This document shows, piece after piece, positions 53,276-58,379 of a DNA stretch of 64,000 nt. Made by a program: the position numbers and the translations under genes. The stretch spans positions 4,928,001 to 4,992,000 of the forward strand of contig CBDCOX010000002.1 in NCBI GenBank assembly GCA_965219995.1, read 5' to 3'. The notes beneath the pieces are model-generated. The model did not search any database, was not told where the DNA came from, and saw nothing but the letters and a program-made list of their open reading frames with translations. Source of the stretch: Candidatus Latescibacterota bacterium (GTDB lineage: Bacteria; Latescibacterota; UBA2968; GCA-2709665). How positions within the stretch are numbered: position 1 is the first letter of the stretch; every line of letters begins with the position of its first letter.

Positions 53276-53301
53276 AAAGCAGTCAGAATCGCGACTGCTT
53301 T
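53276..53301 (-). terminator. Probable intrinsic terminator closing the peptide export operon
   Basis: AAAGCAGTC-8 nt-GACTGCTTT hairpin about 30 nt downstream of the 53331 stop. Confidence 0.55.
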
Positions 53302-53330
53302 CGCGGCTTCACTTGAGCTGTAAGTGTAGC

Positions 53331-53681
53331 CTACTTTTTCTTCTTTTCTTTATCGTCGTCCTGTGTCTGTACTTCTGGCACCGGGTGCGGCTTGGGCGGG
53401 TACTGGGTGTGGCAACTCGCGCAGTTATTGATGACTCCCTGAAGGGAACCGACATTGGCGCCTACGATAGCCCCTCCCACGACCCCAACTACGCCACCTC
53501 CGGTAAGAGCGCCTCCCAAAGCGCCACCTCCGGTTCCCCACGCAACATCGCTGAAATATCCAATAGCAGGGCCAAGATGTGGTGCAATTCCTACCGCTTC
53601 CTCCTCTGCGTTCTCTTGCTGAGAGCTCGGAGGCGCCACGTACGTTGCATCCGGTTCGGCAGTAGCGAAATTAGACGACAT
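53331..53681 (-). CDS. 116-aa putative exported peptide/bacteriocin-like precursor: acidic N-terminus, glycine zipper, CxxCH, Pro-rich and charged tail
   Basis: Strong RBS AGAAAGGAG; GTGGGALGGALTGGGVVGVVGGAIVGANVGSLQG; CASCH; last gene of the HlyD-ABC-CPBP run. Confidence 0.75.
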   Translation of the reverse strand: MSSNFATAEPDATYVAPPSSQQENAEEEAVGIAPHLGPAIGYFSDVAWGTGGGALGGALTGGGVVGVVGGAIVGANVGSLQGVINNCASCHTQYPPKPHPVPEVQTQDDDKEKKKK

Positions 53682-53720
53682 AGTTACGCTCCTTTCTCAA
53701 GAATTGAAGGGGACCTCTGA

Positions 53721-54587: not shown

Positions 54588-56299
54588 ATGCTCGCAGTTC
54601 GCTCATACAATTGGGCATAAGCCCCCTCCTGGGTGATTAGTTGCTCGTGCGTACCTTCCTCAACCAATTGACCTTCATCCAATACCACAATCTTATCAGC
54701 TTTTTGAATGGTCGATAATCGGTGTGCAATGATAATGGTGGTCCTGCCCTCTTTCACTGTTTTTAGTGCCTCTTGGATATGGTATTCCGAATCCATATCT
54801 AATGCTGCAGTCGGTTCGTCTAAAATCAGAATTGGTGTGTCCATAATCAACACACGTGCCAACGCAATTCGTTGTTTCTGTCCCTCTGACATTTGTACAC
54901 CGTGTTCGCCGATCAGAGTTTCATAACCGTCAGGTAAAGATGCGATATAATCGTGAATATGGGCCATGCGTGCTGCGATTTCTATATCATACATTAAGGC
55001 TTCTTGTCCAAAGGTTAAATTGTCTCGAATACTTCCCTGAAACAACGTGCTACCTTGCATTGCAAAACCGATTTGATGCCGAATTGATTTCAAACGCAAA
55101 CGCCGGATATTATATCCATCAATAGAGACGTGACCTTCTTGAGGATCATAAAATCGAGGAATCAATTTAGCCAATGTCGACTTGCCCGACCCACTTTTGC
55201 CCACTAAGGCGACCGTTGTATGCATAGGAATCTGTAAATTTAAGTGATGCAACACAGGTTGGTTATCCTGATAAGCAAACGTGACGTTGTGGAAATAAAT
55301 CTCACCTTGAACTGGCGGTAAGGTTGGCAAATCCTCTCGATCTTGAACTGTCGGTTTCAAATTATAAATTTCAAAGAACCGATTAATGTGTACCAAGGCC
55401 ATTTCAACTTGCCCTACGAGGCCGATCAGATTTCCAATTGGGCCATATAGATAACCCACATAACCAGAGAAGGCCATGTAAGAACCCAGGGAGAGTTCAC
55501 CCTTTAATACCTGAGTCCATCCATACCAACCATAGGCCAACGTTCCAGCGGTCGTTATGAATGTTCCGATATAGCTGAATCCACCACTCAAGTGTGTTGA
55601 TCGAACACGTAATTTTGAAACCTTAGTAAATACATCTCTCATTTTATGATAAAAAGCAGTCTCCAACCCCAATGCCTGAACGGTACGAATACCGGAAAGT
55701 GATTCAAATGAGACAGCGGAAGATTCGGCCGAGGCTTCTGTTACTTTTTGTGACGCTCTACTGAGATGTTTCTTGGAGATCATAACCAGCAGGGTATCGA
55801 AGGGCAATACAGCTAATGAAATCAAAGCCAATTTCCAATTAATGTAGAGTAGAATTGGTGGAAAAATAAATAACTGGATTGAATTCATTATGAGACTATT
55901 TACCAGTGAAATAGTGCTATTAACAGAATTATCTAAATCTCTGAAACGAGACAAAATTTCACCTGTTTGTCTATTATCAAAAAAGCTAAAATCCAACGAT
56001 TGAATGTGCGAATAGAAACGCGATTTAAAATCGAGGCTCATATTCACACCCACATAAGCTGCAAAATAAGCACTCAGTGTTTGTGTGAGACCTAGTCCCA
56101 AGGAGAGCACAGCACCTAAAATCAATATAAACGTCATTAGGGTAAAATCTCTGTGCGGAAACACATCGTCAATTAAAACCTTAGTGATATACGGTCCAGG
56201 GATCTGCAATAACATTATCAACAAACCGACCAGGAGAGTTTGTGAAATAAACTTCCAATAGGGACGTAGTAGTTTTATGATTTCAATTATCTGCTTCAT
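54584..56299 (-). CDS. ABC exporter (TMD plus NBD) of peptide/T1SS type, lacking an N-terminal C39 peptidase domain
   Basis: FFDNRQTGEILSRF, GKSGSGKST, signature MSEGQKQR, ILDEPTAALD, IAHRLST; 571 aa. Confidence 0.92.
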   Translation of the reverse strand: MKQIIEIIKLLRPYWKFISQTLLVGLLIMLLQIPGPYITKVLIDDVFPHRDFTLMTFILILGAVLSLGLGLTQTLSAYFAAYVGVNMSLDFKSRFYSHIQSLDFSFFDNRQTGEILSRFRDLDNSVNSTISLVNSLIMNSIQLFIFPPILLYINWKLALISLAVLPFDTLLVMISKKHLSRASQKVTEASAESSAVSFESLSGIRTVQALGLETAFYHKMRDVFTKVSKLRVRSTHLSGGFSYIGTFITTAGTLAYGWYGWTQVLKGELSLGSYMAFSGYVGYLYGPIGNLIGLVGQVEMALVHINRFFEIYNLKPTVQDREDLPTLPPVQGEIYFHNVTFAYQDNQPVLHHLNLQIPMHTTVALVGKSGSGKSTLAKLIPRFYDPQEGHVSIDGYNIRRLRLKSIRHQIGFAMQGSTLFQGSIRDNLTFGQEALMYDIEIAARMAHIHDYIASLPDGYETLIGEHGVQMSEGQKQRIALARVLIMDTPILILDEPTAALDMDSEYHIQEALKTVKEGRTTIIIAHRLSTIQKADKIVVLDEGQLVEEGTHEQLITQEGAYAQLYERTASM

Positions 56300-57560
56300 C
56301 TGTTTCTAATTGATATATCCCAGGTCGCTCTATACGACCGATCGTTTTCAGGAATTTCTTCCAAAGCAATTCCGCAATTGGGCCTCGCTCTATAACAATC
56401 TTAGCCCCAACTCCCATACCATAAGCGAGCGAATAGGTCTTCGTACCATCTGTAACTACTGGATCCTCAACTTGCACCTTTATCGGATAACGAGCACTCG
56501 CGGTATTTGTCGGCGAAACACCTGCGCCCATGGGCGTCGTTGGTTCAGGTTTTCTCGGAACATCAGTTACAGTGCCCTCGAAAACCTTATACTGCATATG
56601 TGGGAAAGCGTCTATGTATAAACGGGCAATTTGTCCAATCTTGATCTTTGGAATATCTACTTCCTGTATCATCACCAACGCCTGCCACCCACTCAATTCC
56701 GCCAGTTCTAATACAGCCTCGCCTGCCGTGACGTGATCCCCTACCCTTTTGTCCAGGTCACGGGTTAACACGGTCCCGGAGACGGGCGCGTGGATATTCA
56801 TCTGCTCCAGATGCGTCTTCAGGAGACGATACCGAACCCGAAGGTTGCGGTATATCTGTTTCAATTCATTCAATTCCTGTTTACGACTATCAAGCGCGGC
56901 CAGGCGTCGTTTGGCGTGCTCGATTTCTACATTGGCCTTTTGTAGTTTTATTTTGTGCTCTCGCATTGGGATAAGCTTATCGATTGGGTGTTCGAAATCT
57001 TCATGTTTGTGGAAGGGCAATACTGAGTGATAGAATTCGAACTCAACACGTGCTCTTTCCATGTGTAATTTCTCGGTGTCCCGTTCAGTTTCAGCTCTCG
57101 CAATATCCATTTCAATGATCGCCCTTTCGCGGCCCAATTCTATCGGCAAAGCGGCACGCCGAATCTCATTCAGTTTCAGTTCATTCTCAATCTGCTCCAG
57201 TTCATTGCGCAGGTCGGTGTCATCCAGGGTCAGCAATAGAGTGCCCTTTGTGACGTCCTGCCCGTGATTTACAAGAACGGTCTTGATCAAACCGGGCCGT
57301 CGAGACTTGACGATTTCTCGTGAGGTTGGCTGCATGTGACCCTGCCCCTTTACCGTCACGTCCATTCCCAAATGCCAGCCCAGCAGAACCGTGAGCCCGA
57401 CCATACATCCCACAACGCACAGAATGGCGAGCAGGAAAAAGCGCACGAATCGAAAACCAATGCCTGAGGTCGAAAGTACTTCTTGGGCATCAGAACCTTC
57501 GAGTGATTCAGCATCCTTAGAACGTCCCTCGTACGGATTCGTCGGTTCGCCTGAGGTCAT
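56283..57560 (-). CDS. HlyD-family membrane fusion/secretion adaptor protein
   Basis: Single TM, VNHGQDVTKGTLL and IHAPVSGTV lipoyl halves, long coiled coil, DAFPHMQY..FEGTV, LAYGMG. Confidence 0.92.
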   Translation of the reverse strand: MTSGEPTNPYEGRSKDAESLEGSDAQEVLSTSGIGFRFVRFFLLAILCVVGCMVGLTVLLGWHLGMDVTVKGQGHMQPTSREIVKSRRPGLIKTVLVNHGQDVTKGTLLLTLDDTDLRNELEQIENELKLNEIRRAALPIELGRERAIIEMDIARAETERDTEKLHMERARVEFEFYHSVLPFHKHEDFEHPIDKLIPMREHKIKLQKANVEIEHAKRRLAALDSRKQELNELKQIYRNLRVRYRLLKTHLEQMNIHAPVSGTVLTRDLDKRVGDHVTAGEAVLELAELSGWQALVMIQEVDIPKIKIGQIARLYIDAFPHMQYKVFEGTVTDVPRKPEPTTPMGAGVSPTNTASARYPIKVQVEDPVVTDGTKTYSLAYGMGVGAKIVIERGPIAELLWKKFLKTIGRIERPGIYQLETDEADN

Positions 57561-57635
57561 TGAAGCATCACCGGACGTGGCGTGCGGAAGATAGGTTGTG
57601 CATCCTTGAGGAAGCCCGGCAAGCCGATATAACGG

Positions 57636-58379
57636 TCAGCGAAGTGTGTCGCCGGTATCAGACTCTCGAGGCCCGTCCTTCTTGAAATATCGCTTTCGGT
57701 ATTCGCCCGGTGAAATGCCATGAATGCGTTTGAATGCTTCGTGAAGTCGTGTAGAGGAACGGAACCCACAGGCGACCGCGATTTCCTTCATATACATTCG
57801 TGTTTCGGTGACAAATTGCACGGCCTGCGCAATCCTGATCTCTCTCAGTTTTTCCAGAAATGACTTTCCGAAATGCTGCTGGAACAGCCTGCAGCCGTAT
57901 GACCGCGAGAACCGGAGTTTGCGCATGAGGTCTCCGAAACTCAGGTCCGGATTGCCGAAATTATCATTCAGATACGACTCCAACCACGACTTCCAATGAT
58001 CTTGCGAGTCCTCAGACCCCTCTTGTGTCTCCTGTAATTTCTCAGCGTTCCCGGCCTCTTCCAACGTACCAATTGCATCAAACTCGTGCGGCTCTTCTGT
58101 CAGATCCAGAAGCTCTACCGATTGGACGAGGAGTAACCTGGCCTCGATTTTTCTTGAATTCGACATCTTCAGTCCTGTTAAACCATGCAAATTTCGCAGC
58201 TGCAAGTCAGCGGTTCCAACACCAGGTTTTCCCTTCGGTGGAATCTTGAGTCCAACCGTTCCAGTCTGCACAAAGAGTATCTCATACGGGCCTTCTTTCA
58301 AGAATTCCTCAAGTACCGACCTGACAGCCGGATCGCCTTCTATAATGAGAGTCTTGTAAGGTCCTTTATCGCGCGCCAT
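57636..58379 (-). CDS. AraC-family regulator with a degenerate N-terminal receiver-like domain
   Basis: LIIEGDPAVRSVLEEFL...ADLQL..LHG; FSRSYGCRLFQQHFG...EIAVACGF...FKRIHGISPGEYR. Confidence 0.85.
   Translation of the reverse strand: MARDKGPYKTLIIEGDPAVRSVLEEFLKEGPYEILFVQTGTVGLKIPPKGKPGVGTADLQLRNLHGLTGLKMSNSRKIEARLLLVQSVELLDLTEEPHEFDAIGTLEEAGNAEKLQETQEGSEDSQDHWKSWLESYLNDNFGNPDLSFGDLMRKLRFSRSYGCRLFQQHFGKSFLEKLREIRIAQAVQFVTETRMYMKEIAVACGFRSSTRLHEAFKRIHGISPGEYRKRYFKKDGPRESDTGDTLR

Follow-up and report, generated by a model that had tools for sequence, protein, structure and literature searches.

A 64,000-nucleotide stretch of the genome of a Candidatus Latescibacterota bacterium (hereafter the window) carries on its minus strand a cassette of five genes, for an AraC-type regulator, an HlyD-family adaptor, an ATP-binding cassette (ABC) exporter, a CPBP-family intramembrane protease and a 116-residue glycine-zipper peptide. 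We give a probability of roughly one half to the reading that the peptide is an exported, membrane-active hairpin comparable to those of the Cdz and microcin systems, that the CPBP protein serves as its immunity factor, and that the cassette was gained by recombination. The gene set and its conservation, the conserved residues of the peptide, its predicted hairpin and the mosaic origin of the locus are established. An earlier interpretation of the window, made from its letters without database searches (the sequence-only reading), had recognized no named class in this architecture; we likewise found no Pfam, NCBIfam or PADLOC model for it and no description in full-text literature searches. 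In window coordinates, the elements of the cassette are as follows.

57636-58379, minus strand: regulator gene, encoding a degenerate receiver and an AraC-type helix-turn-helix domain (Pfam; homologues in related loci)
56283-57560, minus strand: HlyD-family membrane-fusion adaptor, 425 residues (HlyD_D23, HlyD_3)
54584-56299, minus strand: ABC half-transporter exporter, 571 residues, without a C39 or C39-like domain (ABC_membrane, ABC_tran)
53721-54470, minus strand: CPBP (Rce1-like) glutamic intramembrane protease, probable ATG start at 54470, longest open reading frame extending to 54587
53689-53695, minus strand: ribosome-binding site AAAGGAG of the peptide gene, within the spacer kept among loci
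53331-53681, minus strand: gene for the leaderless 116-residue peptide (homologues beside CPBP genes; profile search; AlphaFold)

By the company it keeps, the small open reading frame (ORF) at the end of the cassette is a real gene, since a homologue recognized by the family hidden Markov model adjoins CPBP in 10/10 loci that carry this CPBP subtype, as against 0/80 control loci. The controls, metagenome loci totalling 627 kb, came from a metagenome scan with the CPBP alignment and hold generic CPBPs that share 22-39% identity in the catalytic core and are not relatives; the same model matched 0/4 same-genus loci with a different CPBP type. A word-indexed protein search with the peptide returned only the peptide itself and one relative, 93% identical. 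Searching with the CPBP protein led to three loci in two Latescibacterota assemblies, each with a small ORF directly after CPBP, and these small ORFs have in common a Cys-Cys-His motif and a PPKEPPVPEIETE-type tail. A profile of the peptide, run over 168 genomes of the phylum, then matched eight besides the window's own. Six of these (G082, G084, G085, G088, G121 and G153) were confirmed: the ORF adjoins CPBP and ABC genes, and HlyD and regulator genes are present as well wherever the contig reaches. The cluster of regulator, HlyD, ABC, CPBP and small ORF thereby recurs in nine more loci of six other genomes, with its gene order permuted, which bears out the earlier proposal of a conserved cluster of the peptide-export type. 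Pumps lacking a comparable ORF had been named beforehand as the observation that would speak against the small gene; what we found in the homologous clusters is that it is kept beside CPBP. The family is rare: searched with its profile, 1.84 billion representative proteins yielded 38 clusters at E <= 0.001. The 116-residue product matched no Pfam or NCBIfam model above its cut-off, the ESM Atlas held no usable match for it, and a Foldseek comparison of two peptide models with the PDB returned nothing at E <= 0.001.

Two weaker profile matches, in G090 and G111, were dropped; the locus in the former (L013) encodes Gly-rich proteins devoid of the Cys motif, and nothing comparable was seen in L014. 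The Gly-rich proteins of L013 (G090:C2, 1023-1878) form a tandem pair of about 115-120 residues each, whose N-terminal LNAEEMAGIDGLWDW stretch resembles a leader of the double-glycine type; probably they make up a bacteriocin-like pair of class II in their own right.

The window peptide is anionic and consists, in order, of an acidic N-terminal part, His35, two glycine-zipper helices, the motif C87-x2-C90-H91, a Pro-rich stretch and an acidic/Lys tail. The zippers that had been read from the translation are indeed there, with Gly at i+4 intervals at positions 49/53/57/61 and 62/66/70/74/78/82. In an alignment of 42 family members, which leaves out P0020 and P0038 (truncated or frameshifted and devoid of the Cys motif) and the borderline P0039, both Cys residues and the His that follows them are invariant, and a His some 50 residues upstream (His35 in the window) and the Asp of a QDAT-like motif are present in at least 90%. 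P0035 lacks a His at this position; once it is set aside, all 41 remaining members have the upstream His. Nineteen members have two residues between the Cys pair, 21 have three and two have four, so the motif is C-x(2-4)-C-H and not a strict CxxCH. Calling this a CxxCH peptide was therefore correct for the window, where the motif reads CASCH (C87, C90, H91), and too narrow for the family, which also has the distant conserved His. The stretch between this His and the first Cys is Gly/Ala-rich, hypervariable and 40-62 residues long.

Models of two family members agree on the shape of this stretch.

Window peptide, AlphaFold2: helices 33-59 and 63-92, mean predicted local distance difference test (pLDDT) score 65
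Distant member P0017, AlphaFold2: helices 39-73 and 75-98, pLDDT 91-96 over the hairpin

The antiparallel register of the modelled hairpin has His35 facing Cys87. In 31/41 sequences (the alignment without P0035), the best turn candidate, in many cases GGP, falls no more than 1.5 residues from the exact His-Cys midpoint; two null models gave means of 4.6-4.8 sequences and at most 14. Because the sequences share ancestry, this count cannot be turned into a probability. Models and symmetry together suggest a helix-turn-helix hairpin clasped at its open end by His, Cys, Cys and His, most simply as a metal site.

How the peptide might leave the cell is indicated by its neighbours and by its own ends. 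Pfam finds in the exporter ABC_membrane (residues 30-287) and ABC_tran (350-498 of 571) and neither C39 nor any other N-terminal domain, in agreement with the sequence-only reading; the genome's single C39 domain lies about 2.3 Mb from the cassette. Pfam matches to the exporter and the adaptor exceed their cut-offs. The best NCBIfam models for the exporter are MsbA_rel, HlyB-type and bacteriocin_ABC, all under cut-off: TIGR01193 reaches 368 bits against 523.85, aligning from model position 143 onward, and TIGR01846 392.8 against 725.55. The adaptor scores 96.5 bits on TIGR01843 (type_I_hlyD), whose cut-off is 208.65. Proteins of the TolC type (OEP domain) number seven elsewhere in the genome, with none in the cluster. 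The regulator matches HTH_18/AraC at E 4e-19 and Response_reg at 25.0 bits, below the cut-off of 30.2, and its homologues, 33-58% identical, stand at the head of the cluster in related loci. PADLOC gave generic ATPase-domain matches on the ABC protein only (mad3, AriA) and none for the CPBP protein, the peptide or the regulator.

A basic N-terminal leader of the form MxxLxK(R)...Y...AY(S/E)GE is present in 28/42 members and missing from 14, the window peptide among them, which starts straight at the conserved core (the match begins at profile position 24). The lack of a double-glycine leader noted earlier thus extends to the lack of any leader. A long acidic tail closes the C terminus of each of the 14 leaderless members, and of only 3/28 of those with a leader; no member has neither. 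For a type I secretion route, the tail of the leaderless members makes a candidate secretion signal. In other clusters, two or more cargo proteins that are unrelated and not hydrophobic occupy the corresponding position and begin with the same leader, which makes the small ORFs likely substrates. Such cargo proteins are seen at L020 8881-9495, L021 7450-8034, L031 13066-13524 and L033 9033-9449; their leaders read MxxxKLxKP...VIAYSGEEE or MK..LLK...VYAY, and their bodies differ, one ending C-P-Q-C-L-P-H and others in Gly runs (NNGGG, NGD).

The leader may be connected with a second set of genes. Leader-bearing loci (L018-L022) also encode a GNAT protein, a fusion of a subtilisin-like S8 protease with DUF1611 and an acyl carrier protein, and some of them a BtrH_N-like protein. 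On the QhpE leader-protease model (cut-off 165) the S8 half of the fusion reaches 157.6 bits, and on the TIGR04066 peptide-maturation family (cut-off 200) the DUF1611 half reaches 129.1. Like the clostridial bacteriocin maturation cluster to which we take TIGR04066 to belong, and which presumably also has an acyl-carrier-like protein, this module sets a DUF1611-like half beside an acyl carrier protein; it differs in its score, in that no radical-SAM partner was seen, and in being confined to the relatives. The fusion occurs in 89/167 other Latescibacterota genomes, often in several copies. The window genome, 98.6% complete, has no S8-DUF1611 or QhpE-like gene, only a generic S8 domain in an ORF of 1258 residues; of the leaderless loci, L004 and L005 have no fusion within 8 kb, and L006 has a BtrH_N-like gene about 7 kb off. 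With so few loci, and related ones at that, we regard the tie between leader and S8 module as no more than a lead. The earlier statement that tailoring enzymes are absent accordingly stands for the window genome and not for the relatives, which carry the S8-DUF1611/acyl carrier module.

The AY(S)GE motif of the leader resembles what we take to be the cyanobactin recognition sequence, and a PatA/PatG-like protease was considered for it and rejected: the S8 domain best matches generic subtilisins in the PDB, and it scores 26.6 bits on the PatA model against a cut-off of 421. A literature search on DUF1611 brought up unrelated papers only and no account of a subtilisin-DUF1611 and acyl carrier protein system. 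A divergent subgroup of the fusions (about 32-40% identical to the query over the full length, in G073, G075, G079, G085, G088, G089, G106, G129, G144 and others) repeatedly contains exactly one in-frame TGA, perhaps not through decay but because the codon is recoded or specifies a conserved selenocysteine.

The setting of the cassette is that of a variable insert, delimited as follows.

51766-59485, no strand: variable insert (hot-spot) between two conserved core genes (comparison of same-genus genomes)
56580-56730, no strand: approximate recombination breakpoint within hlyD (sliding 150-nucleotide identity)

The two core genes are 21-45 bp apart in 5/14 same-genus genomes (G049, G050, G056, G057 and G058), 7/14 have other inserts of 3-18 kb at the site, and two further ones are unresolved. 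Several of these inserts present a regulator, HlyD and ABC genes and then another, different small ORF, whose product closes with a run of Gly; several also hold a second CPBP type, a TPR protein and an S8 module. The hlyD gene of the window is 0.80-0.94 identical to those of the same-genus genomes G047 and G054 over its first 830 nucleotides or so (150-nucleotide sliding window). Past the breakpoint and through the ABC gene the figure is 0.60-0.75, no closer than to copies in another family, and homology within the genus resumes at 53187. Judging from this drop and this resumption, the segment from about 53190 to about 56700, comprising the 3' part of hlyD and the ABC, CPBP and peptide genes, looks to have been imported by recombination within the pump genes. 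At the protein level the adaptor is 81-83% identical to same-genus copies and 58-62% to those of genus g11; the ABC protein is 77-79% identical to its g11 copies, and the GC content of the cassette, 0.454, equals that of g11 cassettes (0.44-0.46). For the neighbouring stretch at 51868-53187, the hot-spot of G048 and G051 offers a counterpart with 84-86% identity; this stretch is hence native to the genus and outside the imported segment.

The way in which the system varies is suggestive of conflict. Within g11, identity is 0.91-0.97 for the ABC protein, 0.72-0.94 for HlyD, 0.54-0.95 for CPBP and 0.24-0.82 for the peptide. Copies number up to three per genome, and the spread is patchy: none of the 14 other same-genus genomes carries the peptide family. 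A conserved pump with a CPBP that diverges faster and a peptide that diverges fastest, several copies, a patchy distribution, swaps of cargo at a hot-spot and arrays of surplus CPBP and TPR genes are the marks of bacteriocin and immunity loci.

The CPBP protein itself is a clear member of its family, with 64.1 bits on the Pfam Rce1-like model (cut-off 22.4) and the motifs EExxxR, FxxxH and HxxxN invariant in 10/10 aligned homologues. Scores on models of the Mrt type are low (MrtS 41.4 against 130, MrtJ 33 against 75, Mrt_core 26.2 against 100), and the peptide does not have the layout of a C-terminally sorted protein, as it lacks an N-terminal signal peptide and has its motif after, not before, the hydrophobic part. 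A predicted complex of the two proteins scored 0.05 (mark 0.32) in a run without controls, and this bears neither for nor against binding. The earlier suggestion that CPBP might replace C39 as the leader peptidase finds no support, for the window peptide has no leader to remove, the leader-bearing relatives own a subtilisin-like protease, and CPBP is present whether or not the peptide has a leader or a tail. The other role then considered, immunity, fits better as far as sequences go, given the intact motifs, the faster divergence of CPBP and peptide than of the pump, and the additional CPBP genes of some relatives. These last form tandem arrays of three to four pairs of a TPR gene and a second-type CPBP gene, some truncated (L020 2005-8634, L021 5669-7221), which lie between the peptide cassette and the S8/GNAT module with no peptide gene beside them and resemble arrays of orphan immunity genes.

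One could thus envision the following course of events. The AraC-type regulator would turn the operon on, and the leaderless peptide would fold as a helix-turn-helix hairpin of two glycine-zipper helices, with His35, Cys87, Cys90 and His91 clasping its open end, a metal ion probably held between them. The peptidase-less ABC protein and HlyD would export it with the help of a TolC-like partner from elsewhere in the genome, the conserved acidic tail probably standing in for the N-terminal leader of the relatives. Outside the cell, the small-residue hairpin would insert into, or aggregate on, the membranes of competitors, and the CPBP protein, catalytically intact by its motifs and encoded directly upstream, would shield the producer as cognate immunity factor. 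Export, metal binding, toxicity and immunity are what we infer here. We favor such a weapon because of the divergence pattern, the copy number, the patchiness, the cargo swapping, the spare CPBP and TPR arrays and the existence of precedents.

Microcin V and the other class II microcins are among these precedents: they are anionic, Gly-rich and unmodified, about 100 residues long, carry a Cys pair near the C terminus and leave the cell through a C39-bearing ABC exporter, an adaptor and TolC. The window differs from them in having no double-glycine leader, C39 domain or small immunity protein, and in the conserved His next to the second Cys and the distant conserved His. A closer parallel is drawn by the sections of PMC5380434 that describe the Cdz system of Caulobacter, in which CdzAB carry out type I secretion of the glycine-zipper proteins CdzC and CdzD, and a separate protein, CdzI, gives immunity. 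As far as that description goes, both are Gram-negative systems with an ABC protein and an HlyD-type adaptor beside genes for small proteins (about 85-115 residues) in which GxxxG recurs and Gly and small hydrophobic residues predominate; each has its own gene for a membrane immunity protein, in the window putatively CPBP, and no need for modification enzymes. The likeness is one of layout and composition; Cdz as described there comprises two leader-bearing proteins and a small transmembrane immunity protein, whereas the window has a single leaderless peptide and a CPBP protein of 249 residues. The peptide also has the His...C-xn-C-H set and long charged ends. As to CPBP, the relevant passage of PMC8538875, citing Kjos 2010, has CPBP/Abi proteins conferring immunity to two-peptide bacteriocins of the GxxxG type. 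The class IIb examples in that passage, plantaricin EF with PlnI and sakacin 23K with SkkI, resemble the cassette in placing a CPBP gene beside genes for GxxxG helix-helix peptides and, as portrayed there, in their dedicated ABC exporter with an accessory protein and their mosaic loci (PMC8538875). They are also portrayed as Gram-positive systems with double-glycine leaders, a C39-bearing ABC protein and two short cationic peptides, in contrast to the single-chain, anionic, leaderless hairpin of the window and its exporter devoid of C39.

Several observations weigh against such a weapon. Identities of CPBP and peptide are not significantly correlated (Spearman 0.28, p 0.15, 28 pairs from an order-level subset), and co-diversification of toxin and immunity protein is therefore not supported. 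The adaptor and the ABC protein fall under the curated cut-offs of every model for type I secretion or bacteriocin export. The peptide is anionic and, at 116 residues, long. Its first helix is not hydrophobic in members P0004 and P0007, so that membrane insertion cannot be general, and the clustering of His and Cys residues rests on helix register and the symmetry test, not on distances. A conserved site of the Cys2His2 type would be unusual in a secreted bacteriocin, where a disulfide is expected outside the cell. Lastly, the charged termini of the peptide and the basic ends of distant members (CHK, CHQKK) would also suit a hairpin residing in the inner membrane with its two ends in the cytoplasm.

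What is new here is the fold of the peptide with its clasp and the leader-or-tail pattern; the logic of a pump, a membrane protease and a Gly-rich peptide is already known. One may go further and see in these peptides a new class of ribosomally made products, glycine/alanine-zipper hairpins with a His-Cys-Cys-His metal or haem staple, exported by the pump through an interchangeable leader or acidic tail and forming one cargo of a polymorphic S8-DUF1611/acyl carrier protein/CPBP system spread through the phylum. We offer this as a tentative and somewhat doubtful generalization.

Of the alternatives to a weapon, the one that survives best, although we consider it rather unlikely, makes the peptide a signal or a small protein that binds a metal or cofactor. 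Because it would fold before leaving the cytoplasm, it would depend on the ABC protein instead of Sec, in the manner of QhpC, a subunit of quinohemoprotein amine dehydrogenase, and outside it would serve in metal capture, redox chemistry or signalling. The predicted meeting of the conserved His with C-x(2-4)-C-H at the open end of the hairpin would suit such a function. In the portion of PMC7876137 that deals with its maturation, QhpE removes a 28-residue leader from the small, Cys-rich QhpC while it is still in the cytoplasm, after which an efflux ABC transporter carries QhpC to the periplasm. This route parallels the cassette, to the extent covered by that account, in its small Cys-containing protein, its peptidase-less efflux-type ABC protein in place of Sec and its AraC-family regulator; the regulator of the window is weakly QhpR-like (36.5 bits, cut-off 250), and, in the relatives only, the cytoplasmic subtilisin-like protease nearly reaches the QhpE model. 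Yet partner enzymes resembling QhpA, QhpB and the radical-SAM protein QhpD were not found in the cluster, and no thioether or quinone chemistry is implied. Neither the HlyD adaptor nor CPBP is part of Qhp as that account presents it, and an HlyD adaptor implies transit beyond the periplasm. Besides, a hypervariable hairpin, encoded in multiple copies, patchily distributed and swapped as cargo at a hot-spot, suits conflict better than a housekeeping cofactor protein.

It is unlikely, too, that CPBP is a maturase of another kind, which would act before or during export and cut, for instance, the acidic C-terminal tail after Cys-Cys-His in a loosely Rce1-like fashion. Such a role could draw on the intact catalytic motifs and on the constant adjacency of the CPBP and peptide genes across a conserved spacer of about 40 nucleotides, and a common mature end would reconcile the 0 to 42 residues that follow C-xn-C-H across the family. 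A CAAX-type protease, SilX, is moreover implicated in exporting or processing a signal peptide, and not in immunity, in the relevant part of PMC9298176. Still, CPBP is also found where the tail is a single Lys (L023, ending CHK) or nil (P0028, ending CH), and there would be nothing for it to trim. Its indifference to the leader, the separate subtilisin-like protease of the leader-bearing relatives and the immunity-like look of the peptide-free CPBP and TPR arrays also speak against maturation.

That the hairpin stays in the inner membrane of the producer and modulates CPBP or the pump, which would carry some other substrate, strikes us as quite improbable. Distant members are basic at both ends (MxKLxKR... 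at the N terminus, CHK or CHQKK at the C terminus), and by the positive-inside rule basic ends would put both termini in the cytoplasm, where a Cys2His2 site would remain reduced and capable of binding zinc. Against it stand the leader shared with unrelated non-hydrophobic cargo and the fact that the window cassette encodes no other candidate substrate. The notion that the motif binds haem covalently, so that the peptide would be akin to a microperoxidase or to a c-type cytochrome reduced to its minimum and the conserved His would be the distal ligand, is in our view very improbable: C-x-x-C-H is the classical haem c motif, known cytochromes include spacings of 3 or 4 residues, and a second conserved His does lie opposite the motif in the predicted hairpin, but the spacing is 3 in 21/42 and 4 in 2/42, far from the usual proportions, the translation has no Sec or Tat signal peptide, Pfam gives no cytochrome match, the cluster contains no haem lyase or Ccm gene, and a type-I-like route would presumably bypass the periplasmic maturation machinery.

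The layout of the cassette largely matches what had been read from the letters. All five co-oriented minus-strand ORFs are present, and the AT-rich island in which they were said to lie is borne out by a GC content of 0.38-0.52 over 52000-59000 against 0.58-0.66 in the flanks (for the cassette, the value given above compares with 0.585 in the remainder of the window). The HlyD, ABC and CPBP genes had been described as overlapping. The first two do share 17 nucleotides; an overlap of ABC with CPBP would need a GTG start at 54587. All nine CPBP homologues align from an internal ATG (residue 40 of the long ORF, coordinate 54470), for which reason the protein probably starts there and has 249 residues; the resulting gap of 113 nucleotides is similar to that of about 130 in relatives. 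The peptide gene follows closely, as had been noted, its start 39 nucleotides past the CPBP stop codon and preceded by the strong AAAGGAG box, and some 40 nucleotides upstream of its ATG, including this box, are alike in the window, L004-L006 and L018-L021. Two candidate signals flank the operon.

58531-58560, minus strand: best sigma-70-like promoter match upstream of the regulator, TTGCGA-18-TATAAT, 10/12
53278-53299, minus strand: hairpin 3' of the peptide gene, 8 pairs, without a U-tract (fold)

The former is a consensus match only, and promoter-like sites are no more numerous in the region than in shuffled sequences. The latter had been likened to a terminator; the hairpin is real, but the U-tract is missing and a terminator scan did not call it. 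The fold, over 96 nucleotides, gives z = -1.9, and the scan finds a better terminator-like site at 51945-51968, past the next ORF downstream of the peptide gene.

That next region, 52003-52750, contains an ORF of 230 residues with a weak HEAT-like repeat (17.9 bits, below cut-off), whose start overlaps an ORF of 67 residues in another frame with a signal-peptide-like beginning; from their sequences, a frameshifted secreted protein is possible. Transposase-like ORFs, by sequence appearance, are seen in same-genus inserts of the hot-spot (L030 9598-10482; L032 6320-7333 and 10085-12431), consistent with a mobile, often rearranged site. Short dispersed repeats of about 120-220 bp occur in the window at 50145-50355, 58683-58827 and 59246-59434, two of them in non-coding DNA at the insert's right edge; dozens of copies, 76-91% identical, are scattered over the window genome and all same-genus genomes, and they may be miniature mobile or repetitive extragenic palindrome (REP)-like elements. 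Related cassettes also show decay and rearrangement (L020 11203-12927 and 9350-9748; L006 7048-7908; L033 5730-7260): in one case two ORFs make up what was a single ABC gene, and a further ABC fragment lies close by; of the HlyD proteins, one is without its N-terminal third and another is split in two.

If the favored reading is true, an uncultured and barely studied phylum possesses an exported hairpin peptide family that has gone undescribed, and bacteriocin-like systems of the glycine-zipper type with CPBP-type immunity would reach well past Proteobacteria and Firmicutes. The cassette would represent a compact four-gene export unit, free of leader peptidase and tailoring enzymes and hence appealing for heterologous expression. 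The family would, in addition, offer a natural experiment on how ABC proteins and adaptors recognize their substrates, with peptides bearing a leader, a tail or both served by pumps 77-97% identical, and the His/Cys/Cys/His clasp is a structural prediction that can be tested directly. Finally, the relatives would point to a large, multi-copy maturation system in Latescibacterota built on the subtilisin-DUF1611 fusion and an acyl carrier protein.

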